A stretch of DNA of 64,000 bases, taken from assembly GCA_937863565.1 (NCBI GenBank), contig CALMGJ010000038.1:1-64000 (forward strand). Direction: 5' to 3'. The stretch is from an uncultured bacterium (GTDB lineage Bacteria; AUK180). Within the stretch, counting starts at the first letter, position 1. Each line of letters begins with the position of its first letter. This document shows, piece after piece, positions 6,268 to 40,483 of the stretch. The notes beneath the pieces were generated by a model. It had not been told where the DNA came from. It ran no database searches and saw only the letters and a list, made by a program, of their open reading frames with translations. The position numbers and the translations under genes were made by a program.

Positions 6268-6453
6268 TTGGCTAGGAAGGCATTGATAGAAAGGCAGAAG
6301 CAACAGCCTAAATTTAAAGTGAAATTCCACAACAGATGTCCCATATGCGGAAGATCGAGAGGTTTTCTGAGAAGATTCAATATGTGCAGGATCTGCTTCA
6401 GGGAACTGGCCGGCGAAGGAAAAGTGCCGGGCGTAAGAAAATCTTCCTGGTAA
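6268..6453 (+). CDS. rpsZ: 30S ribosomal protein S14, zinc-binding (type Z), 61 aa
   Basis: TTG start after [37 protein letters not shown]. Confidence 0.96.
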
Positions 6454-6464
6454 GGAGGTTGACC

Positions 6465-6866
6465 ATGGTAATGACGGATCCTATAGCGGAACTACTCACA
6501 AGGATAAGAAATGCGATCGGCGCGGATCAGAGGTCGATTGAACTCGGCTATTCCCGCACGAAAGAGAACATCGTGAAGATCCTGAAAAAGGAAGGATATA
6601 TATCCGATTATACGATCGGCGATATAACCGATAAGAAGAAGAAACTCGTCCTTTTCCTCAGATACGATGAAACTCATAAGAACATCATCACCGGACTGGT
6701 GAGAGTGAGCAAGCCCGGAAGAAGAATTTATTCGGGCTATAAAGAAATACCCAGGGTGCTCAACGGATTTGGCGTGGCGATCGTCTCGACCTCCAAAGGC
6801 ATTCTGACAGACAGGGAATGCCGCGTGAAAAAGATCGGCGGCGAAGTCCTCTGTTATATCTGGTAA
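6465..6866 (+). CDS. rpsH: 30S ribosomal protein S8
   Basis: ATG after AGGAGG; TDPIAELLTRIRNA, RVSKPGRRIY and STSKG..GGEV motifs. Confidence 0.98.
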   Translation: MVMTDPIAELLTRIRNAIGADQRSIELGYSRTKENIVKILKKEGYISDYTIGDITDKKKKLVLFLRYDETHKNIITGLVRVSKPGRRIYSGYKEIPRVLNGFGVAIVSTSKGILTDRECRVKKIGGEVLCYIW

Positions 6867-28404: not shown

Positions 28405-29805
28405 ATGAAAAAAAGGTCATTTCTCAGAGATACGTTCAGAATATCCACGGCAGAGGGCATCTTCGTTCAGATACATGTTCTTCTCTCGGGTGCGGGCAGC
28501 GTCTTTTTGACCAAATTGGCCGTGCTCATGGGTGCGCAGCCCATCCATTTCTCGCTGATGTCCGCTATAACTCAATTTTCACAGATCTTTCAACCGTTAG
28601 GGTATTTCTTCACGAGAAAACTGGCCTCAAGAAAAAAGTTCGTATTTCAGACCGCGATGCTCAACCGTTCCCTTGTCATTTTCTACGGTATACTTCCTCT
28701 GATATTCATTCCCGAAAAAGCCATTGCCGTATTCCTTATTCTTTTCCTTATTTCAACGATACTCGGAGCGATGGCGGGCAATGCCTGGATAGCCTGGATC
28801 TCGGACAGCGTTCCGCTAAATATCAGAGGAAGGTTCTTCTCTTTCCGTTCACAGATCCTGATGGCGGTAGGACTCGTTGTGAGTTTCATCTTCAGTTACT
28901 GTATAGACCTTTTTTCCGGCAAGCGCATATTCTTTTCGGAACGCATCAAGAGCCTTTTTGCCGCGGATACTTTCAATCCGGTGAATCTGAAATTCGGCAT
29001 GGCGGCCGTTTTCGTTTTTGCTTTTCTATCGGGAATAATCGGGCTTATAGTAATGCTCGCCCAGCCGGAACGCAAAAAGGAGATAGAGAACGAGAATTTC
29101 GCGGAGACGATGAAAAGCGCGCTCTCGGACAGAAATTTCAGAAAACTTCTCGTCTATTCAATGTGGTGGATGTTCGCCGTCGGGATAGGGTCGCCGTACT
29201 GGCAGCCGTTCATGATACAGAAGCTGAAGATGACACTCATGGAGATCCAGCTCTACGGCGTTATTTCCACTGTTTCATCAGTGATCGCGATCAGGTTCTG
29301 GGGCCGCTTCATCGATAAGTTCGGGAATAAAACGGCTATGAGATTCGCGATAATTCTGGGGGGACTGAACCCGCTGGTCTGGCTTTTCGCAAGAGAGAAC
29401 CGGATATGGTTCCTGTTCTTTGAAGCGGCCACATCGGGCATTATGTGGGCCGGCGCCGGCATCGTGGCCACAAATTTCGTTTTGGCTATCGCGCCTCCGC
29501 GCCGTAGCCAGATCTATTCCGGCATTTACGGAGCATTCTCTGGTCTGGGTATGATGGCAACTATGATCCTTTCAGGCATCTTCATCCCGAAACGTGCCAT
29601 TCCCATTGCCGGAGGTATTCTCGAACCGGAACAGGTATTGTTCCTTATAACTGCCCTGGCACGCTGGAGCGCGCAGATACCTCTTTCGGGAGTGAAGGAA
29701 AGGGGCCGTCCTTTTAAAGAAGCGTTTTTCTTCCTCGTGGAATTCGCCAAAGTAAGGGTTCTGAATTTTCTCGGTTCGCCTAAAAGGAAAAGGTCAGATT
29801 CCTGA
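28405..29805 (+). CDS. MFS transporter
   Basis: W.AWISD.VP..IRGRFFS.R and WGRFIDKFGNK motifs; about 12 TM segments. Confidence 0.9.
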   Translation: MKKRSFLRDTFRISTAEGIFVQIHVLLSGAGSVFLTKLAVLMGAQPIHFSLMSAITQFSQIFQPLGYFFTRKLASRKKFVFQTAMLNRSLVIFYGILPLIFIPEKAIAVFLILFLISTILGAMAGNAWIAWISDSVPLNIRGRFFSFRSQILMAVGLVVSFIFSYCIDLFSGKRIFFSERIKSLFAADTFNPVNLKFGMAAVFVFAFLSGIIGLIVMLAQPERKKEIENENFAETMKSALSDRNFRKLLVYSMWWMFAVGIGSPYWQPFMIQKLKMTLMEIQLYGVISTVSSVIAIRFWGRFIDKFGNKTAMRFAIILGGLNPLVWLFARENRIWFLFFEAATSGIMWAGAGIVATNFVLAIAPPRRSQIYSGIYGAFSGLGMMATMILSGIFIPKRAIPIAGGILEPEQVLFLITALARWSAQIPLSGVKERGRPFKEAFFFLVEFAKVRVLNFLGSPKRKRSDS

Positions 29806-31032
29806 TACCTTGAGGGACAATACCATATTGTCCAGCATTGCATAAGGCAGAACGCCTTCTTCCGCTGCCCCCATGAAATCCCCGCCGAACATATCGAAAA
29901 TATTCCCGCTGATTTGAAGCTGGGGAAGTCTTCCTATCAATTTCTCCCCGTCGTAAAGGAAAGAAAGCTGTACGGGCAGCGACATATCGCCCTGAGGCGT
30001 GAAATCCCCTCCGGCGGACATCATCACATATACGGCTTTGCGTCCGCCGAGTATGTCCTTGATCGTTCTGTGCGTCCTGCCGATCTCTATGCCCGGAAGC
30101 GCCAGTGTCGGTTTTCCGTCATAATGCGATACCGATGCTCCGGTAAGTGGCAGTTTATAAAGATCGGCCGTGAATTTATCCGTATACGGGGTCTTGAAAA
30201 CACCCTTCTCGATAAGCGGGTATAAGAAGCCCTTATTGAAAATTCCCTCGGCATCGAAAAATTCGGTATACGCCTTAACGGGATCGGTCGACTGATAAAA
30301 GGAGAATTTTTCGTTGAAGACCTTCCGGCTTTCTTTCCCCGACAGAAGGGAAGTTCCGGAACCGTATGACATCCCACCCAGCGATTCTACAAGTTTGAAC
30401 AAAGCGTCCATACCCTCGTAGTGTTCGATGAATACGACGGGTATCCGCTCTTCCTTGGGAAGAGCCGCTTTTTTCGCGTATGCTCCGCAGAGTCCGTCCA
30501 AAAGCGGTAAGGCGTCATTTCTATCCCATTTTCTTGCTGCATATCCGAATCCGCCGTCTATGATATTGACCGAACTTTTCTCTTTGAAGATGAGAGAAAG
30601 CGCGAAGGTCCTGTCTTCGTTGATAAGATCAAGGCCGAGATCGTTTTTGAGAACGGTCCTGCTTTCCAATATCGAGATCTTGTGAGAGAAAGAAAATCCC
30701 TTGATGGAGTTCCTCAATTCTTTTAAAAATGCCTCATTCTCCTCCATGAACTCCTCAGTGCTCATCTTGAATTCATCTATCAAAATATGCTTCTTCACTC
30801 CCGCGGTTGGCTTGAACGGATAGGGATTCCTGTATTTGAGGGTAGCCGCGGCTTTCTTTGCCAGATCCTCTTCATCATAATGTCCAAGCACGCCCTTGAT
30901 ACCGATAAGGCCTTTATCATAGACGCGTACGGCAGTACGCAGCACATCCTTTTCCTTTACGGAAGCGATCTTCGTCTGCAGGATCTTGACCGAGAAACTC
31001 CTGCTCCTTATCTGGTATAGTTCTCTGTTCAT
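29794..31032 (-). CDS. TldE/PmbA-like protein
   Basis: FFDAEG, LIEKGV..TP..D..TA and GGDFTPQGD.S.PV motifs; no HExxH; directly downstream of tldD. Confidence 0.85.
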   Translation of the reverse strand: MNRELYQIRSRSFSVKILQTKIASVKEKDVLRTAVRVYDKGLIGIKGVLGHYDEEDLAKKAAATLKYRNPYPFKPTAGVKKHILIDEFKMSTEEFMEENEAFLKELRNSIKGFSFSHKISILESRTVLKNDLGLDLINEDRTFALSLIFKEKSSVNIIDGGFGYAARKWDRNDALPLLDGLCGAYAKKAALPKEERIPVVFIEHYEGMDALFKLVESLGGMSYGSGTSLLSGKESRKVFNEKFSFYQSTDPVKAYTEFFDAEGIFNKGFLYPLIEKGVFKTPYTDKFTADLYKLPLTGASVSHYDGKPTLALPGIEIGRTHRTIKDILGGRKAVYVMMSAGGDFTPQGDMSLPVQLSFLYDGEKLIGRLPQLQISGNIFDMFGGDFMGAAEEGVLPYAMLDNMVLSLKVSGI

Positions 31033-31041
31033 TCCGGCCTC

Positions 31042-32376
31042 CTACTGCACATTCAGTTCTTTGATGAGAACGAACGGCCCGCCGATACCGACATTCAGCG
31101 GATACTGTTCCATCTTGCCGCATCCTCCCATCACGAAGGACATCATCTCCATCTTCTTGGAAACGCTCTCGATAAGCGAAAGGGTTTTGAACACATCTCC
31201 GGTCACAACGGAAATGAGAAGGGGTTTCCCTATTTTCCCGTTCTTCACTTCATATGAGATCGAGGGTGCGATGGTAAAAGTGGACATGCCGGAACCGTGT
31301 TTTATCGTTTCTACGAAAATGCCGTCCTTGACCTTGGAAAAGAGCGCCGCCTTTGACAACTTGCCGGCCGCGATATAGGTGTTTGTCATGCGGACTATCG
31401 GCTCGAACTCATAGGAGATGGCTCTCGCATTGCCCGTGGGCTCTTCTTCGAGCTCCGCCGCCGTTTCGCAGCTGTGAAGACGCCCCGTGAGAATGCCGTT
31501 TTTTATAAGAAAGGTCTTCCCGGTTTTTACGCCCTCATCGTCAAAAGCGGCATAACCGGAATAGTTCAGCGTTCCGTCGTCGATGATCGAGAGGATGGAA
31601 CTGCTCACTTTCTTCCCGATCGTCCATTCCTTTTTCATGGCCTCGTCGCCGAGCATGAAATCGGCTTCGCTCTTATGCCCGAAACTTTCATGCGCGAAAA
31701 CGCCCGAAGCATCGGGCGACATTATCACCCTGTACTTGCCGGGTTTTACGGGAACGGCGTTTTTAAAGAATTCCTCGCATTTTTTAAGATAGTGCTCAAG
31801 CCTCACTTCATGACCGCGAAGATCTTCGAAATCATGGGAGGAGGCCTGGTATTTTTCCGTAAGTAAACGCTCGTTGCGCGCCATCTGGAAGATGAAGCAG
31901 AAGCCGCCTTTTTGAAAATCGTGAACGATATCCGCGCCCTTGCTCGAGCAGAACCGTTTCTCTATATAACTGTCAATATAGTAAACGCGCCAGTATTTTA
32001 TATGCTCCCTTTTCATGAACGGGAAATACGCTTTTAGCATGGCTGACTTCTTGTTGAGGCTGATCTTCGAGATGTCTTTTTTCTTGAAATTGAGGTGGAT
32101 CCCTGTATTCACAGGGAATTTTTCCACAACGGGTATCTTATCGATGTCTTTTTTAGGTTTTGCGAACTTGGCGAGCCGGTCGATATGCTTCTGAACATGG
32201 TCGAGGTCCGTCGTTGAAGAATAATACCATCTTTCACCGTCGAAAACGCGGATAAAGGCTCCCTCGATCTCTCTTTCCTTGATCTCATCGAGTTTGCCGA
32301 GAAGATAGGAAGCGGTTGCGGAAGCGGTTTTTTCGATGCGTACATCCGTATAAAGCCCTTTCGGAAATTTGAACAT
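31042..32376 (-). CDS. tldD: TldD metalloprotease
   Basis: GVFAHESFGH, FDDEG, GNARA..Y...PIVRMTNTY and GCGK..Q motifs. Confidence 0.92.
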   Translation of the reverse strand: MFKFPKGLYTDVRIEKTASATASYLLGKLDEIKEREIEGAFIRVFDGERWYYSSTTDLDHVQKHIDRLAKFAKPKKDIDKIPVVEKFPVNTGIHLNFKKKDISKISLNKKSAMLKAYFPFMKREHIKYWRVYYIDSYIEKRFCSSKGADIVHDFQKGGFCFIFQMARNERLLTEKYQASSHDFEDLRGHEVRLEHYLKKCEEFFKNAVPVKPGKYRVIMSPDASGVFAHESFGHKSEADFMLGDEAMKKEWTIGKKVSSSILSIIDDGTLNYSGYAAFDDEGVKTGKTFLIKNGILTGRLHSCETAAELEEEPTGNARAISYEFEPIVRMTNTYIAAGKLSKAALFSKVKDGIFVETIKHGSGMSTFTIAPSISYEVKNGKIGKPLLISVVTGDVFKTLSLIESVSKKMEMMSFVMGGCGKMEQYPLNVGIGGPFVLIKELNVQ

Positions 32377-32399
32377 CACAACCTCCTGATGACTTTAAA

Positions 32400-32428: not shown

Positions 32429-32512
32429 TGATTTACTAGGAAATTTTAATTTTACTTTTAGTGGGTTATTTGTAAATAAAAAAAGCGTTTATAATGGGAA
32501 TTCTTAAAAAAC

Positions 32513-32542
32513 TTGACATAGTTAATTTAAAAGAAGTATAAT
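32513..32542 (+). promoter_or_regulatory. Consensus sigma70 promoter at the head of the AT-rich island
   Basis: TTGACA-18 nt-TATAAT; AGGAGG at 32554-32559. Confidence 0.75.
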
Positions 32543-32563
32543 GATACGATAAAAGGAGGCGTT

Positions 32564-32683
32564 ATGTTAAATCAGAGGCTCCGGGGCATCATCTTTACTT
32601 CTACGATATTTCTCATTTCAATACAGATCCCGGCATTCTCGGAAGAAAACAGGGAATATACTCAGGCCGGGCAGATGGGGTAG
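32564..32683 (+). pseudogene. 39-aa signal-peptide ORF; truncated secreted-protein gene or small secreted peptide
   Basis: Manual translation MLNQRLRGIIFTSTIFLISIQIPAFSEENREYTQAGQMG*; strong promoter and RBS; the stop lies inside a junction hairpin. Confidence 0.55.
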
Positions 32684-32720
32684 AGTAATTCATGAGTGCA
32701 TTCTGTTCCAAGGTAAAGGG

Positions 32721-33401
32721 ATGAAGCGAATTATTTCTCTGATGATATTATTCTTGCTGGGGATTTCACTTGAAGCGAATACACTGACCTTAAGATTATC
32801 AATGAATGATTACAATCGCCTTGAATTCGAAGGTTTCATAAAGGAATATCATCATTGGTACGATATACAGATATTTGCGGATCTGATGCTCAATTATAGA
32901 ATTCCGCTTGGAGATAAATATATGTTGGGATTTACCACACAAGTAAAATCATTTCAAGACTCCAATCGCGAGTATTTTCTGTATTTATTCTTTTCCGGCC
33001 GCTTTACATTTCTATTATCAGAATATTCGGAACTCAGTTTGCAGATCCCTGCAAGATATTTTCCCGCTTTCGGATATTGGGACCCTATGGGATTTCTTCT
33101 TGAGAAGGAAGAGACGATCTATTATGAATGCAGAAAGAAAAGATTCTCATACCATATAGGCTTTGCTTTTGACATTGCTATCATATTTCAGTGCCAATAT
33201 TATTTCTGTAAATATTTCGGACTTGAATACGGAATAGAGATACGGCATGAAGAAGGCCTTGAGATCATTCCAATGGATATATCTTACCACAGGATCGGAC
33301 TGCTATTTAATGTCAAGTGCATAGATTGTAGGATTTACTATCATGAAGGCCGTGGCGACCCGGTTGTCAGAGTGGCAGGGAACATAGGAATAAAATTATG
33401 A
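32721..33401 (+). CDS. Hypothetical secreted beta-strand-rich protein (island paralog 1)
   Basis: Signal peptide; aromatic-rich alternating strands; ends AGNIGIKL. Confidence 0.75.
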   Translation: MKRIISLMILFLLGISLEANTLTLRLSMNDYNRLEFEGFIKEYHHWYDIQIFADLMLNYRIPLGDKYMLGFTTQVKSFQDSNREYFLYLFFSGRFTFLLSEYSELSLQIPARYFPAFGYWDPMGFLLEKEETIYYECRKKRFSYHIGFAFDIAIIFQCQYYFCKYFGLEYGIEIRHEEGLEIIPMDISYHRIGLLFNVKCIDCRIYYHEGRGDPVVRVAGNIGIKL

Positions 33402-33433
33402 ATGGGGACGGTTGTTGCATTTGTTGCAAAATC
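33394..33433 (+). repeat. 40-bp direct repeat, copy 1, spanning the paralog 1 stop
   Basis: AATTATGAATGGGGACGGTTGTTGCATTTGTTGCAAAATC; 34/40 identical to 34991-35030. Confidence 0.85.
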
Positions 33434-33474
33434 ACTGGAAAATGAATAAGGATAAGACCCTTTATACTAACATT

Positions 33475-33492
33475 AAGGCGGAGTGATGAAAA
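33475..33492 (+). repeat. 18-bp direct repeat (RBS and start), copy 1
   Basis: AAGGCGGAGTGATGAAAA; identical to 34295-34312. Confidence 0.85.
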
Positions 33493-34256
33493 GAATATTT
33501 CTTTTGCACATGGTTATATTGCTGATGATATCTTATGGGAATGATTTTGATATAAAAATATCATTAGGAGGTTCTGACGCAGAATTATTGTTCTATAAAG
33601 ATCTCAGATTAGATGACATTCAGAAGGATATTAATGATGATACGACATCTTTTCTGGCTCTTTATGACGATCAACACATTAATGTTTACGGAGGCTTGTA
33701 TTTAAATTTTACGACGGAAGTAAACAAAAGAATGGAATTTAATATTCAAACCCATATGAAAATATTTAAAGAGAAAATCCATTTATTCAATCACGACGAT
33801 TTCACGACAACAGCCTTTGAAGAATATGTAAATACGGCGGTTATTATTAACCCCAGGTTATCTATTTCACTTGTTAATAAAATAAAACTGAATATTCAAT
33901 GCCACTTAGGTTATTATCCAAGCATTAACAAATTCCATTTGCATATCGCAGAATCGCCGTTTATTAATTTCTATGCTGAATTCTTTATATTAAGCTGGCT
34001 TGAAATAGGAATTGGACTTACTCCGTCAGCATGGCTCAGAATATATCCTTTTAAAGGGACATCTATTGAGATCAGGGCCATTGATATTCTTCCGGATCCC
34101 TATGGAGGAAACGAGAGATACATTCATATACAACTCAGACACGAATTCGCATCCAAAAGCAGAATATTATGGCTGAAGAAATTTCATATTGAAGCAACAT
34201 TGCACAATGGATTTTTCGGTGTTCCGCTTGCTTTGGCAATCGGAGGAGAAATATAA
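33483..34256 (+). CDS. Hypothetical secreted beta-strand-rich protein (island paralog 2)
   Basis: Signal peptide; NPRLSISL..KIKLNIQ..LGYYP aligns by eye with paralogs 1 and 3. Confidence 0.75.
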   Translation: MMKRIFLLHMVILLMISYGNDFDIKISLGGSDAELLFYKDLRLDDIQKDINDDTTSFLALYDDQHINVYGGLYLNFTTEVNKRMEFNIQTHMKIFKEKIHLFNHDDFTTTAFEEYVNTAVIINPRLSISLVNKIKLNIQCHLGYYPSINKFHLHIAESPFINFYAEFFILSWLEIGIGLTPSAWLRIYPFKGTSIEIRAIDILPDPYGGNERYIHIQLRHEFASKSRILWLKKFHIEATLHNGFFGVPLALAIGGEI

Positions 34257-34294
34257 AGATAATGAAATGGCTGAGCCCCCTTTTCTCCACCTGC

Positions 34295-34312
34295 AAGGCG
34301 GAGTGATGAAAA
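34295..34312 (+). repeat. 18-bp direct repeat (RBS and start), copy 2
   Basis: AAGGCGGAGTGATGAAAA. Confidence 0.85.
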
Positions 34313-34998
34313 AATTATTATTTGTTATCCTTCTTTTCAGCGTTTATTTATCTTTAGAATGCAAAGCGTTTATATCTTTGACATACAACAATCGTATTTT
34401 GAATAATGAACTCGAGGGATTTGAAAACTATCTTCAACATATTGAAACAGAATACATCAAATGTTATCGTACCTCGTATGAAATCAGAAACAGATGGGAG
34501 ATCAACCTATCAAAAAGGTTCATGTTCAAGATCGATATGATATTCGCATCCCTGGATAGGATCGAAACGGTACCATTACCCGATCCGGAATTGTTCATAG
34601 GTACGGACCCGGCATTCGTATGGCATATCACGGAAAAATTTTCATTCGGCATCAAATATTCTTTCAAATACTTCATTAAGGCGGGATATTTTGATCTGAA
34701 CATCGAAAATATAACTGATGGTGCGGCAGAATTGATGTTCATGGAACTGCATTTTCCGAAAGTGGAAATCCATTTAGGATGTTCATGGATTCCCATATTG
34801 TTAAACACATCCGCTTTCCTGGAGTGGAGGATATTCAAGTATTTAGGGACGAGGGTCGGTCTTTATCATTGCCCCAATGCCCCGAAGTTATTAGACCCCG
34901 TCGGAGAAATAGGCCTTATATTCTATTTTAAAGAATTAAAAGCGATGCTGTTTTGGCATGAGGCACATTTAGGCGGGAAGATCGAGGTCCAATTATGA
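34303..34998 (+). CDS. Hypothetical secreted beta-strand-rich protein (island paralog 3)
   Basis: GTG/ATG after GGAG; signal peptide; shares EGF, KY.G, IGL.F..K and HE motifs and the terminal strand with paralog 1. Confidence 0.75.
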   Translation: MMKKLLFVILLFSVYLSLECKAFISLTYNNRILNNELEGFENYLQHIETEYIKCYRTSYEIRNRWEINLSKRFMFKIDMIFASLDRIETVPLPDPELFIGTDPAFVWHITEKFSFGIKYSFKYFIKAGYFDLNIENITDGAAELMFMELHFPKVEIHLGCSWIPILLNTSAFLEWRIFKYLGTRVGLYHCPNAPKLLDPVGEIGLIFYFKELKAMLFWHEAHLGGKIEVQL

Positions 34999-35030
34999 AT
35001 GGGGACAATGGTTGCAAGAGTTGCAAAATC
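34991..35030 (+). repeat. 40-bp direct repeat, copy 2, spanning the paralog 3 stop
   Basis: AATTATGAATGGGGACAATGGTTGCAAGAGTTGCAAAATC. Confidence 0.85.
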
Positions 35031-35201
35031 GCCGTAAGGCTTGTCTTTTTAACATATATGCAAAATAATAAATACAATAGATACCCAAACGGAAAGCCCC
35101 TGAAGACGGGTAAAGTTGCGGTGATCAAATGAGGGAACACTATTAATCAATGCCGTGGTCCTGAAATCATTCGCTAAATGGGCAGATAAAAAGGCTTTCT
35201 T

Positions 35202-35255: not shown

Positions 35256-35555
35256 ATGGCCACAAAAGAACAGGTATTGGAAAAATTGGGGAAGGTTCTG
35301 GACCCGGAACTCGGTCTGGACATAGTTTCACTCGGTTTCATCTACGAGATCGCTTTTCCGGCGCCGGATTCCGTGCATGTCAAGATGACCCTTTCGGTCC
35401 CGGGCTGCCCCCTTGTCTCCTTCCTTACCAATGAGGCGAAAACGGTCATACTGGAACTTCCCGATGTGAAGAACGCCGAGATAGAGCTCGTGTTCGACCC
35501 TCCGTGGTCGCCGGACATGATCACGGAAGAGACAAGAAAGAAACTGGGGTTGTGA
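35256..35555 (+). CDS. DUF59 (SufT/PaaD-like) metal-sulfur cluster assembly factor
   Basis: V.DPELGLDIVSLGFIY, MTL..PGCP and LVFDPPWSPDM motifs. Confidence 0.93.
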   Translation: MATKEQVLEKLGKVLDPELGLDIVSLGFIYEIAFPAPDSVHVKMTLSVPGCPLVSFLTNEAKTVILELPDVKNAEIELVFDPPWSPDMITEETRKKLGL

Positions 35556-39202: not shown

Positions 39203-40483
39203 CTACCGGTTCAGCGAGTATTTCTCGATCTTATATGTAAGCTGATTACGGTTCAGGCCGAGGATCTTGGCCGCTTTCGAAAGGTTGCCGCCGCTCATCG
39301 CGATGGCCTTCTTTATGTATTTCTTCTCGATCTCGAGAAGGCGCATCTCGGTATCACCAGCGTCCTCTGAAACGATATCTGAAAATATCACGGCCTCAGC
39401 CTTGATGTTATCGTCATCCGAAAGAATGTATGCCTGTTCAATGATATTGTGAAGTTCTCTGATATTACCGGGGAAAGAGTAACCCTGCAATTTCTGCATC
39501 GCCTCGCCCCCGATCGTTTTCTTCATGCCGTATTTTGCATTGAGGAAAGCGGTTCTGCTTCTGATGAGCTCTTCAAGGTCCTCCTTCCTTTCTCTCAAGG
39601 GCGGGATGAATATCTCAACATTCTTGAGCCGGAAGAAAAGGTCTTTACGGAAAGCCCCCTTCTTCACGAGTTCTTCAAGGTCTTCGTTCGTTGCGCTTAT
39701 GATCCTGATATCAACATGCCTCTCCTGCGATTCTCCGATGCGGACAAGTACCTTCTCCTCGATGATCCGGAGGAATTTTTTCTGCATCTCCTCCCTCAAT
39801 GTTCCGATCTCGTCCAGAAATATCGTCCCTTTGTCCGCCGCCTCGAATTTTCCCGTTCTGTCGCTGATCGCGCCGGTGAAGGAACCCTTTTTATGACCGA
39901 ATAATTCCGACTCGAAAAGATCGGAAGGTATGGATGTGCAATCCACTTTCACGAACGGTGCGCTTCTGCGTTTGGAGTTATCGTGGATAAAACGTGCGAT
40001 CAAATCCTTGCCTGCCCCGGTTTCACCCTTCAGAAGGACAGTGGCTTCCGTTTGAGCCACTTTCTTTGCGGTTTCGAGGATCGTTCTCATCGTTTTGGAC
40101 GAACCCACGGGCACTCCCTCTCCGGGAGACGAAGTATCGCACCCTTCTATGATCTCGCGCAAGGCCTTGATCTCAAAAGGTTTGAGAAGATAATCAACGG
40201 CGCCGAGTTTCATCGCTTCGACAGCGTCGGGGATCGTTCCGTATGCGGTCATGAAGCAGACAGGGATATTGCCGAAATTGACACGCACGTTCTTTATGAA
40301 GTCGAAACCGTTCATCTTATCCATTTTAATATCCGAAACGATGAGGTCCGCCCGGAAGTCCGCCAACGCATTCAGCCCTTCCTGAGCTGAAGCGAAAGCC
40401 TTCACCTCATGGCCTTCCTTGGAAAGCGCCATTGAAAGGATCTTGCGCATATTCTCTTCGTCATCAACGATCATTATCTTCAT
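39203..40483 (-). CDS. Sigma54-dependent NtrC-family response regulator
   Basis: Receiver (DD, D, T, KP); GETGAGKD, ESELFGH.KGSFTGA, FLDEIG and FPGNIREL motifs; Fis HTH. Confidence 0.96.
   Translation of the reverse strand: MKIMIVDDEENMRKILSMALSKEGHEVKAFASAQEGLNALADFRADLIVSDIKMDKMNGFDFIKNVRVNFGNIPVCFMTAYGTIPDAVEAMKLGAVDYLLKPFEIKALREIIEGCDTSSPGEGVPVGSSKTMRTILETAKKVAQTEATVLLKGETGAGKDLIARFIHDNSKRRSAPFVKVDCTSIPSDLFESELFGHKKGSFTGAISDRTGKFEAADKGTIFLDEIGTLREEMQKKFLRIIEEKVLVRIGESQERHVDIRIISATNEDLEELVKKGAFRKDLFFRLKNVEIFIPPLRERKEDLEELIRSRTAFLNAKYGMKKTIGGEAMQKLQGYSFPGNIRELHNIIEQAYILSDDDNIKAEAVIFSDIVSEDAGDTEMRLLEIEKKYIKKAIAMSGGNLSKAAKILGLNRNQLTYKIEKYSLNR

Follow-up and report, generated by a model that had tools for sequence, protein, structure and literature searches.

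The three same-strand genes described here lie in a short AT-rich block of the window, a stretch of 64,000 nucleotides (nt) that corresponds to bases 1-64000 of contig C38 from an uncultured bacterium (genome of 2.27 Mb in 38 contigs, 95.5% complete). The block is probably a worn-down copy of a lineage-specific, multi-copy locus family, from which the secreted enzymes have been lost and three outer-membrane (OM) β-barrel paralogs are left: gene 1 (32721-33401), gene 2 (33486-34256), and gene 3 (34306-34998). The conserved sequences at the gene junctions were read by the initial annotation as the fold-back sites of an integrase-less, integron-like cassette array. They are likely of three separate origins, namely end-repeats of TIRYT-type transposase genes, the deletion of an enzyme gene (gene A), and the start and spacer regions of the barrel family itself. 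The block is bounded by a minus-strand TldD/PmbA pair (29794-32379) and an FeS_assembly_P (DUF59) gene at 35256, and all features described within it are on the plus strand. The open reading frames (ORFs) and the AT-richer composition agree with the initial annotation, the GC content being 0.31-0.41 in the block, 0.45-0.52 in the flanks, and 0.46-0.48 in large contigs.

Origins of the conserved junction sequences

The junctions after genes 1 and 3 carry a 40-bp repeat. The two copies are identical at 34/40 positions, as first annotated (33/40 in a separate alignment, a score that 0/3000 shuffles reach), and a repeat search extends the likeness to 63 nt at 75%. The repeat contains an element of ~31 nt, GGGGAC-GGTY-GTTGCA-TTT-GTTGCA-AAAT, and conservation is restricted to these ~31 nt when 50 unique copies are aligned (tcGGGGACGGTyGTTGCATTTGTTGCAAAAT). 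The gene 1 copy (33402-33434) belongs to a "TTT" subtype. Its core GGGGACGGTTGTTGCATTTGTTGCAAAAT (33404-33432) lies 2 nt past the gene 1 stop and is 29/29 identical both to a copy on contig C2 and to the 50-copy consensus. The copy after gene 3 (34999-35030, GGGGACAATGGTTGCAAGAGTTGCAAAATC) is diverged and, by pattern match, nearer to a sister "AAA" subtype; its sequence GGGGACAATGGTTGCAAGAGTTGCA is closer to this second subtype, GGTTGCRARAGTTGCA, and fits GGAC-N3-GGTTGCRARAGTTGCA with 0 mismatches. By sequence, the two window repeats are therefore assignable to two sister subtypes.

Both subtypes are dispersed in related genomes. A DNA search of 30 relatives finds window 33401-33434 at many sites of same-family genomes with 96-100% identity, while the housekeeping DNA of these genomes is just 64-67% identical to the window. 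Among the nine genomes of the phylum that were counted, the 19-mer GGTYGTTGCATTTGTTGCA (≤1 mismatch) is present in 2 copies in the window's own genome (G000), in 27, 21, and 12 copies in three genomes of a sister genus (G001, G004, and G006, respectively), in 1 copy in G005, and in 0 copies in the other four; the reversed-sequence control gives 0 in all nine. An exact 24-mer is found in 25 stretches among 185,579 species genomes, which stem from three genome records only, the window's own genome being perhaps not covered. The AAA subtype occurs in 1-14 copies in 6/9 genomes of the phylum, with 7-14 copies each in G001, G002, G004, and G006, and it flanks a Y1_Tnp gene in G002. The GTTGCA type as a whole has three copies in G000, two in the window and one on C2.

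The cognate transposases are found in the relatives, where inverted copies of the repeat flank genes for 282-amino-acid (aa) Y1 proteins (two genes at L044 and one locus at L028). These proteins match Y1_Tnp at E 2e-16 and 3e-15. PF01797 is recognized in 5/5 proteins (E 9e-6 to 2e-16), and the aligned sequences share an invariant H59 and H61 (the HUH motif) and Y118 in 5/5 cases. The NCBIfam model REP_Tyr_transpos is matched at E 6e-20 with a score of 71.6, below its cut-off of 80, and a C-terminal match to HTH_23 is weak (E 1.6e-4, 21.8 bits, below the cut-off of 24.6). G000 itself harbors three Y1_Tnp genes, each flanked by inverted sister repeats of the same build: AGGGACGTTG-GTTGAA-AAA-GGTGAA around the gene on C29 (11 copies in G000), AGGGACGWTG-GTTGAC-ATT-GTTGAC around the gene on C30 (7 copies), and AAGGTACCTGGTCTTTAC around the gene on C13 (5 copies). 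A cognate Y1 gene for the TTT or the AAA subtype is absent from the G000 assembly.

At 20 further Y1_Tnp loci of relatives, 14 have flanking inverted repeats, and 11 of these 14 pairs start with RGGGAC. The end-repeats take on a two-part build that consists of a conserved (R)GGGAC-GGTG-like head and two direct half-sites 2-5 nt apart. The half-sites vary by gene (GTTGCA, GTTGCC, GTTGAC, GTTGAA/GGTGAA, GTAGAA, GTGAAG, GTTAGT, TTCAC, and others), and the two-module build is seen in 10/11 RGGGAC-type pairs among the 20 loci (L089-L108; also C29:77338-78268 and C30:61593-62534). This arrangement suggests that the Y1 domain may read the head and the variable C-terminal helix-turn-helix (HTH) the half-sites, which gives a concrete binding and cleavage hypothesis for the enzymes of this class.

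Y1 genes with flanking terminal inverted repeats have been termed TIRtrons and their proteins TIRYTs by Di Nocera et al. (2013; PMC3733652), who report GGGGWSAS in many of the repeats as well as dispersed repeat families of moderate abundance. According to Quentin et al. (2018; PMC6006769), most TIRYTs fall into subclass 2.1 with a C-terminal HTH (Bac_DnaA_C, HTH_23, or HTH_28). The elements described here share with this class a Y1/HUH gene that encodes ~280-315 aa and a C-terminal HTH, inverted repeats that start with a GGGG(A/T)(C/G)-type motif, a moderate number of repeats (here 2-27 per genome) that stand alone, in pairs, or in clusters, and the presence of several distinct gene/repeat pairs per genome. 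They differ in that the window has two solo repeats and no gene, and in a motif, GGGGACGG, that matches 7/8 positions of GGGGWSAS. The two direct half-sites that change with the gene (e.g., GTTGCA-N3-GTTGCA) are likewise not described in the available portions of PMC3733652 and PMC6006769, in which, as literature that uses the term, TIRYT activity or biochemical data are also absent.

A second comparison is to repetitive extragenic palindromic (REP) sequences and their REP-associated tyrosine transposases (RAYTs). The likeness covers short extragenic repeats that are inverted around a single-copy-like Y1 gene, dispersed, and usually downstream of genes (Nunvar 2010, PMC2817692; Bertels 2017, PMC5581495), and the match to REP_Tyr_transpos, albeit below its cut-off. 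The window repeats, however, lack a stable hairpin as well as a GTAG or CGTC tag at either end and are low in copy. The sole hairpin in the 40-bp repeat is a 5-6-bp TTGCA/TGCAA pairing that is no better than in shuffles (z -0.42 and -1.49). The window repeats are recognizable as solo terminal repeats of TIRYT-type (RAYT-like Y1/HUH) transposase genes and not as hairpin REPs. In all likelihood they are relics or hitch-hikers of a passive kind and do not serve for capture. A resemblance to sequences near Y1 transposases had been noted in the initial annotation; it holds for the 40-bp repeat, but neither for the other junctions nor for hairpin REPs. It was a good lead, because the GGGGAC repeat matches the TIRYT literature and flanks Y1 genes in relatives. 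In this lineage, the barely studied class is diverse, with 3-14 genes per genome.

Several observations accompany these repeats. Many of the relatives' copies follow a tandem "stutter," a single duplication of the 12-14 nt that end in GGGGAC, e.g., GAACTTCGGGGACG-GAACTTCGGGGACGG (L042:1310-1345, L044:5500-5535, L028:860-905, L031:140-185, L033:430-480, and L043:6570-6610). Gene-less inverted pairs of end-repeats, i.e., miniature derivatives of ~190-227 nt, are present in G001, G004, G006, and G000 (L109-L115, L118, and L119); those in G000 lie at C11:203075-203266 and at C10:121545-121748, the latter pairing two different subtypes. The 38-nt insert that follows gene 1 has ATGAAT on either side (33398-33403 and 33442-33447). 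A target-site duplication was rejected, as neither a duplication nor a fixed flank recurs consistently among 10 element pairs from five genomes. Small Cys-rich ORFs at ATGA overlaps (MNGDGCC.. and MNGDNGC..) were also discarded, since their shared part is the repeat, which turns up in every context and frame.

The junction before gene 1 has an origin in a lost enzyme gene. A sigma-70-type promoter, TTGACA-18-TATAAT (32513-32542), fits the consensus at 12/12 positions, is the single consensus promoter upstream of the genes, as initially annotated, and precedes a 39-codon ORF, g0 (32564-32683 in the ORF list). Window 32507-32648, which spans promoter, ribosome-binding site (RBS), and signal peptide, is 75% identical over 142 nt to a locus on C26 (E 1e-21), and the promoter region has 35-nt matches at 94% on C11 and C33. 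Residues 1-29 of g0 are 52% identical (tblastn) to the N-terminus of the 320-aa and 318-aa gene A products on C11 and C26, respectively. These products are predicted to be of the five-bladed propeller type because they match Glyco_hydro_32N (E 9e-10 and 4e-8) and also the glycoside hydrolase (GH) families GH130 and GH43. The intact gene A on C26 ends in ..GFMRIFSCEAE* and is joined by an ATGA overlap to a barrel gene with 36% identity to gene 1.

The 62 nt before gene 1 and the final 62 nt of gene A on C26 are identical at 39/61 positions, a score that is reached by 0/3000 and 0/1000 shuffles and by 1/1000 without the last 11 nt; by blastn, the relic is found at 67% over 134 nt (E 2e-4). This 3′-end relic (32659-32720, the last ~60 nt of gene A by alignment to C26) reads ..FMSAFCSKVKG*, joins gene 1 by an ATGA stop/start overlap, and includes the supposed fold-back at 32677-32709. 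Because g0 and the 62 nt match the two ends of gene A, the GGGGTAGAGT/ATTCTGTTCC fold-back of the initial annotation is, judged from the alignments, an internally deleted glycosidase-like gene, that is, a 39-codon stub fused to the last ~60 nt. An internal deletion of about 0.8 kb in the propeller gene left the stub and the 3′ end.

The junctions before genes 2 and 3 are marked by the spacers of the barrel family. An exact 18-mer, AAGGCGGAGTGATGAAAA, overlaps the starts of genes 2 and 3, as first described, at 33475 and 34295 (33475-33492 and 34295-34312), and is absent elsewhere in the 2.27-Mb genome. The spacer before gene 2 (33435-33485) ends in a Shine–Dalgarno (SD) sequence and the 18-mer, and the spacer before gene 3 (34257-34305) lacks a transposase-type repeat. 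Both spacers are identical at 36/47 positions (0/3000 shuffles as good), and the likeness is 25/36 without the 18-mer part (9/3000 as good). The region 3′ of gene 1 is thus composed of a 33-nt repeat and a 51-nt spacer homologous to the 49-nt spacer before gene 3. The last ~23 nt, which form the SD/start stretch, match the enzyme-to-barrel junction of C26 at 21/23 positions. The 18-mer and the ~50-nt spacers are homologous parts of the barrel family's own inter-gene spacer and, presumably by function, its translation-start region. An origin of the spacers as relics of enzyme 3′ ends (..EAE*) was rejected, as 761 and 430 of 2000 shuffles give local scores as good and, in a further control, 206-1000 of 1000 shuffles do so, with only the SD/start stretch shared.

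A further relic follows gene 3. At 59 nt after the gene 3 repeat, 40 nt match the 3′ end of a broken C2 enzyme gene at 90% (36/40) and probably represent the last codons of a type-IX-secretion C-terminal sorting domain (35086-35132, ..NGKPLKTGKVAVIK). The tail ..SSGVYFYTVLKDGKPLKTGKVAVIK recurs at at least 9 gene ends in the genome, and over 28 aa the C2-type tail shares 89% identity with the terminus of a C33 subtilase, whose intact C-terminus matches PF18962 Por_Secre_tail (E 1.6e-6, 28.7 bits versus a cut-off of 27). The 32-aa and 43-aa window relics have no NCBIfam match. On C2, a repeat identical (29/29) to the gene 1 copy sits within the tail region, and the ORF stops just past the repeat; beyond their final 85 nt, the C2 tail and the intact C33 tail align too poorly to show an insertion of the repeat. 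An enzyme once downstream of gene 3 was probably lost, because sorting-tail codons follow the repeat here and the C2 repeat sits in such a tail. The C2 barrel-to-enzyme junction reads ACTTATGAATAG, and at the stops of both gene 1 and gene 3, TTATGAAT runs directly into GGGGAC. From these 8 shared bases and the gene order, ATGAAT may be the fossil start of a lost downstream enzyme gene that was deleted up to the repeat. After gene 3, the loss would probably extend from about this start codon to the repeat.

The motif ATGGGG, by which the initial annotation grouped three junctions, is present at 32675, 33402, and 34999, but it does not mark one kind of site: two of the three belong to the transposase-type repeat and the third lies in the gene-3′-end relic. 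As single-stranded DNA (ssDNA), 32677-32709 folds at -0.1 kcal/mol (z +1.16), and 175/200 shuffles fold as well. With z values of 0.03 for 33404-33460, -0.92 for 35001-35086, and -0.40 for the fourth junction, none of the four junctions folds better than dinucleotide shuffles, so that the proposed fold-backs find no support. The absence of an attC core is borne out by 0 RYYYAAC/GTTRRRY pairs 40-150 nt apart in the four junctions on either strand. Contig C38 has no PF00589 and no PF01797 gene, and the four PF00589 matches of the genome are on C28, C30, and C14 (two). As the assembly holds no cognate gene, any enzyme would have to act in trans, as had been proposed. The block shares with integron arrays one promoter before several same-strand genes and short conserved sequences at the gene boundaries. 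It differs by the lack of IntI, attC cores, and ssDNA fold-back, by genes that are paralogs of one family, by a repeat at only 2/4 junctions, and by boundaries of three unrelated origins. The block is not an integron-like gene-capture system, because there is no better-than-shuffle fold, no attC core, and no recombinase on the contig, and the genes are paralogous. A false lead is thereby removed, and the case illustrates that the look of a cassette array can arise from three unrelated processes (end-repeats at gene ends, an internal deletion, and the conserved start regions of a fast-diverging surface-protein family).

Barrel genes and enzyme-plus-barrel modules

Genes 1 to 3 encode proteins of 226, 256, and 230 aa, all with signal peptides. 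They are divergent paralogs of a lineage-specific OM β-barrel family with 8-10 copies in the genome. Genes 1 and 3 align over their full length at 21% protein identity (E 1e-4, BLASTP), and gene 2 has no BLASTP match to either of them. A Pfam scan assigns no family to the three genes, and no OM protein family is significant. The AlphaFold model of gene 1 takes on a 13-strand barrel (predicted local distance difference test 76.9, predicted template-modeling score 0.72), for which the top Foldseek matches in the PDB are all OM barrels, namely OmpG, the intimin/invasin β-domain, and the COG4313 channel (E 1.5e-5 to 1e-3, template-modeling (TM) score up to 0.53). For gene 2, the nearest clusters in the ESM Atlas are labeled "outer membrane protein beta-barrel" (score 0.95), and OM barrels with TM scores of 0.55-0.66 make up the structure rows. 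Gene 2 also matches the family profile at E 1.2e-52, being itself a row of that profile. The profile, which was built from eight paralogs, has 10 matches in G000 (7 of which are its own input rows), 2 in G001, and 2 in G004; there are 0 in G002, G003, G005, and G006. A word-based search of 5.8 billion proteins with gene 1 returns no homologue except itself.

Sister loci of the block are located on C26, C11, C33, and C2 of the same genome (tblastn and blastn), and copies of the locus family are also present in the related genus. The module loci comprise C26:1-2063, C11:231988-234215, C2:39693-42310, and C33:6400-13574 in G000 and L053 on G001:C1. In these modules, secreted enzymes alternate with small OM barrel genes, commonly by ATGA stop/start overlaps. 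The enzymes include the GH32/43/130-like propeller, an unassigned protein of ~340 aa, and a subtilase with a type-IX sorting tail. A supposed likeness of the ~340-aa enzyme to zinc phospholipase C was dropped, as the domain search gives it no support, and an NCBIfam search has no match for this protein. In intact copies, the conserved promoter and leader would drive the secreted enzymes. Transcription of the three genes that remain in the window presumably starts at the single promoter, and translation at the SD/start region of each gene.

Tandem arrays of fast-diverging OM paralogs keep leaders and start regions conserved. The window array is likewise conserved in signal peptides, SD, and start region, with barrels that are at most 21% identical. 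It differs from such arrays in that it is the remnant of an enzyme-plus-barrel module and carries transposase end-repeats at two gene ends.

The modules also show traces of exchange. The propeller C-terminus ..IWFTG.NS.HP..GFMRIF.. is found at the end of two chimeric or truncated copies of the ~340-aa enzyme as well, one at the C2 contig end and one in a 132-aa ORF on C11, which points to possible recombination between modules. The last ~85 nt of the broken C2 enzyme (39693-39780) and the C33 subtilase (6403-6490) are nearly identical with a ~60-base identical run, and upstream of this shared tail the enzyme DNA aligns poorly, which looks like a recent gene conversion of the sorting tail.

Points against the proposed origins and rival explanations

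A number of observations sit uneasily with a worn-down module whose repeats are passive relics. The spacers are 77% conserved and the genes far less so (21% between genes 1 and 3, with gene 2 matching neither). The 29/29 identity of the gene 1 copy to a consensus from another genus would be unusual in an ancient relic free of selection. The two window copies have an identical 10-nt left flank at the stop despite their seemingly different subtypes, and a barrel gene of G004 carries a variant repeat (AGGGACGGAGGTTGCGAAAGTTGCA) 20 nt past its stop (L055:1275-1320, G004:C13); the shared flank and the G004 case hint at a target preference or a role at barrel 3′ ends. Finally, the assembly is 95.5% complete with contigs that end in family loci, and a cognate transposase gene could be unassembled.

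The rival that fares best, although it is improbable, regards the GGGGAC repeats as sites at which a trans-acting Y1/HUH transposase captures or exchanges gene modules, an analogue of integrons without a tyrosine recombinase. In its mechanistic form, for which the chances appear equally slim, GGGGACGG would be cut by the Y1 domain, the half-sites would be read by each HTH, and solo copies would act as break-and-join points for gene modules. Modules would then be deleted, duplicated, or exchanged, defence genes in one genus and surface-barrel/enzyme modules here, and the window array, with an enzyme apparently removed exactly to the repeat, would be a footprint of the process. In relatives, the GGGGAC repeat is indeed seen beside variable genes as well as beside Y1 genes. 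In the sister genus, copies lie between genes of AT-rich islands (34-36% GC; GmrSD, Abi_2, Vsr+Dcm, RloB+AAA_21, AbiJ, caspase, Schlafen, and TIR), where 17/23 scanned ORFs match a Pfam family. Two direct copies enclose one GmrSD gene of G004, and a G004/G001 synteny break coincides with a repeat. Among 48 unique copies, 33 have a co-oriented and 9 an opposed downstream ORF, while 27 have a co-oriented and 11 an opposed upstream ORF (naive ORF calls), and 6/22 repeats of this build in G000 begin 1-6 nt past the stop of a co-oriented ORF.

Co-orientation is, however, also expected from strand-biased single-strand transposition with repeats settling downstream of genes (PMC3733652). The syntenic island of G001 is equally variable with one repeat in 19 kb, and that of G006 has none in 12 kb. 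Island variability is therefore independent of the repeats, since the G001 and G006 islands differ with one or no repeat. The lack of a consistent target duplication or fixed flank in the 10 element pairs, the repeat's presence in only 2/4 window junctions, and the paralogy of the genes also speak against capture, as does the silence of the available portions of PMC3733652 and PMC6006769 on any TIRYT activity. A capture role for the repeats in the islands is conceivable but has no positive support.

The domains encoded in these islands of the sister genus (L039, L041, and L043 on G001:C95, G004:C37, and G001:C154, respectively) are GmrSD_N, Abi_2, Vsr with DNA_methylase, RloB with AAA_21, AbiJ_NTD4, Peptidase_C14, SLFN_AlbA_2, and TIR_2.

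Marginally less probable still is a reading of the ~31-nt element as a selected regulatory site, either a sigma-54 -24/-12 promoter or an operator with two half-sites, with the Y1 genes as one target among others. The sigma-54 consensus is TGGCACG-N4-TTGCA, with GG at -24 and GC at -12. GGGGACG-GTTG-TTGCA fits it with GG and GC correctly spaced, rpoN is present in the genome, and the downstream gene is co-oriented in 33/42 determinable cases. Before Y1 genes, the first TTGCAT followed after 17 nt by TATATT or TAGAAT also resembles a sigma-70 promoter. In the sister families, however, GA takes the place of GC at -12 (GTTGAA and GTTGAC), and the half-sites covary with the adjacent Y1 gene in 10/11 RGGGAC-type pairs. 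Gene-less inverted pairs ~200-225 nt apart and copies inside or after convergent gene ends are equally hard to reconcile with a promoter or operator, and the near-100% cross-genus identity, which includes the spacer bases, is unlike that of regulon sites.

The weakest rival, in which all junction repeats are the flanks of an ordinary tandem duplication of gene, terminator, and RBS, can draw on the full-length paralogy of genes 1 and 3, on a homology that extends past the repeat into the final ~25 nt of both genes, and on an 18-mer and spacer that occur only beside the barrel gene family, but it is very unlikely, given that the core of the 40-bp repeat is found next to dozens of unrelated genes and, in relatives, on both sides of transposase genes, that the junction before gene 1 is a deleted glycosidase-like gene and not a duplicated flank, and that no junction contains a terminator-like site (3 are found, all within ORFs, versus 2.0 expected). 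Tandem duplication is thus contradicted for the 40-bp repeat and stands for the 18-mer and spacer only, as a part of the three-origin explanation. Confinement to one gene family is what the initial annotation had named as evidence against its own reading, and it applies to the 18-mer and spacer.

Assembly breaks and further repeats

The contigs C11, C26, C2, and C33 each terminate within loci of the barrel/enzyme family, and the family is larger than assembled because these contigs end inside its loci. Recent duplicates are probably the places where the assembly breaks or collapses. Gene 3 gives an example: its first 131 nt with the start region (34296-34426) are 95% identical to the extreme end of C11 (C11:234085-234215), and the final 55 nt of this match are identical. 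Both the tldD and the DUF59 flank are present in 5 same-family genomes, in each of which they lie on separate contigs. An Rfam search gives no relevant match at E ≤ 1.

Further repeat families are seen in the sister genus at L041:700-790, L041:1615-1700, and L043:11240-11500. An abundant repeat of ~45-50 nt matches in both orientations on dozens of contigs, and another repeat of ~100-250 nt has dozens of copies in G004 and G006.

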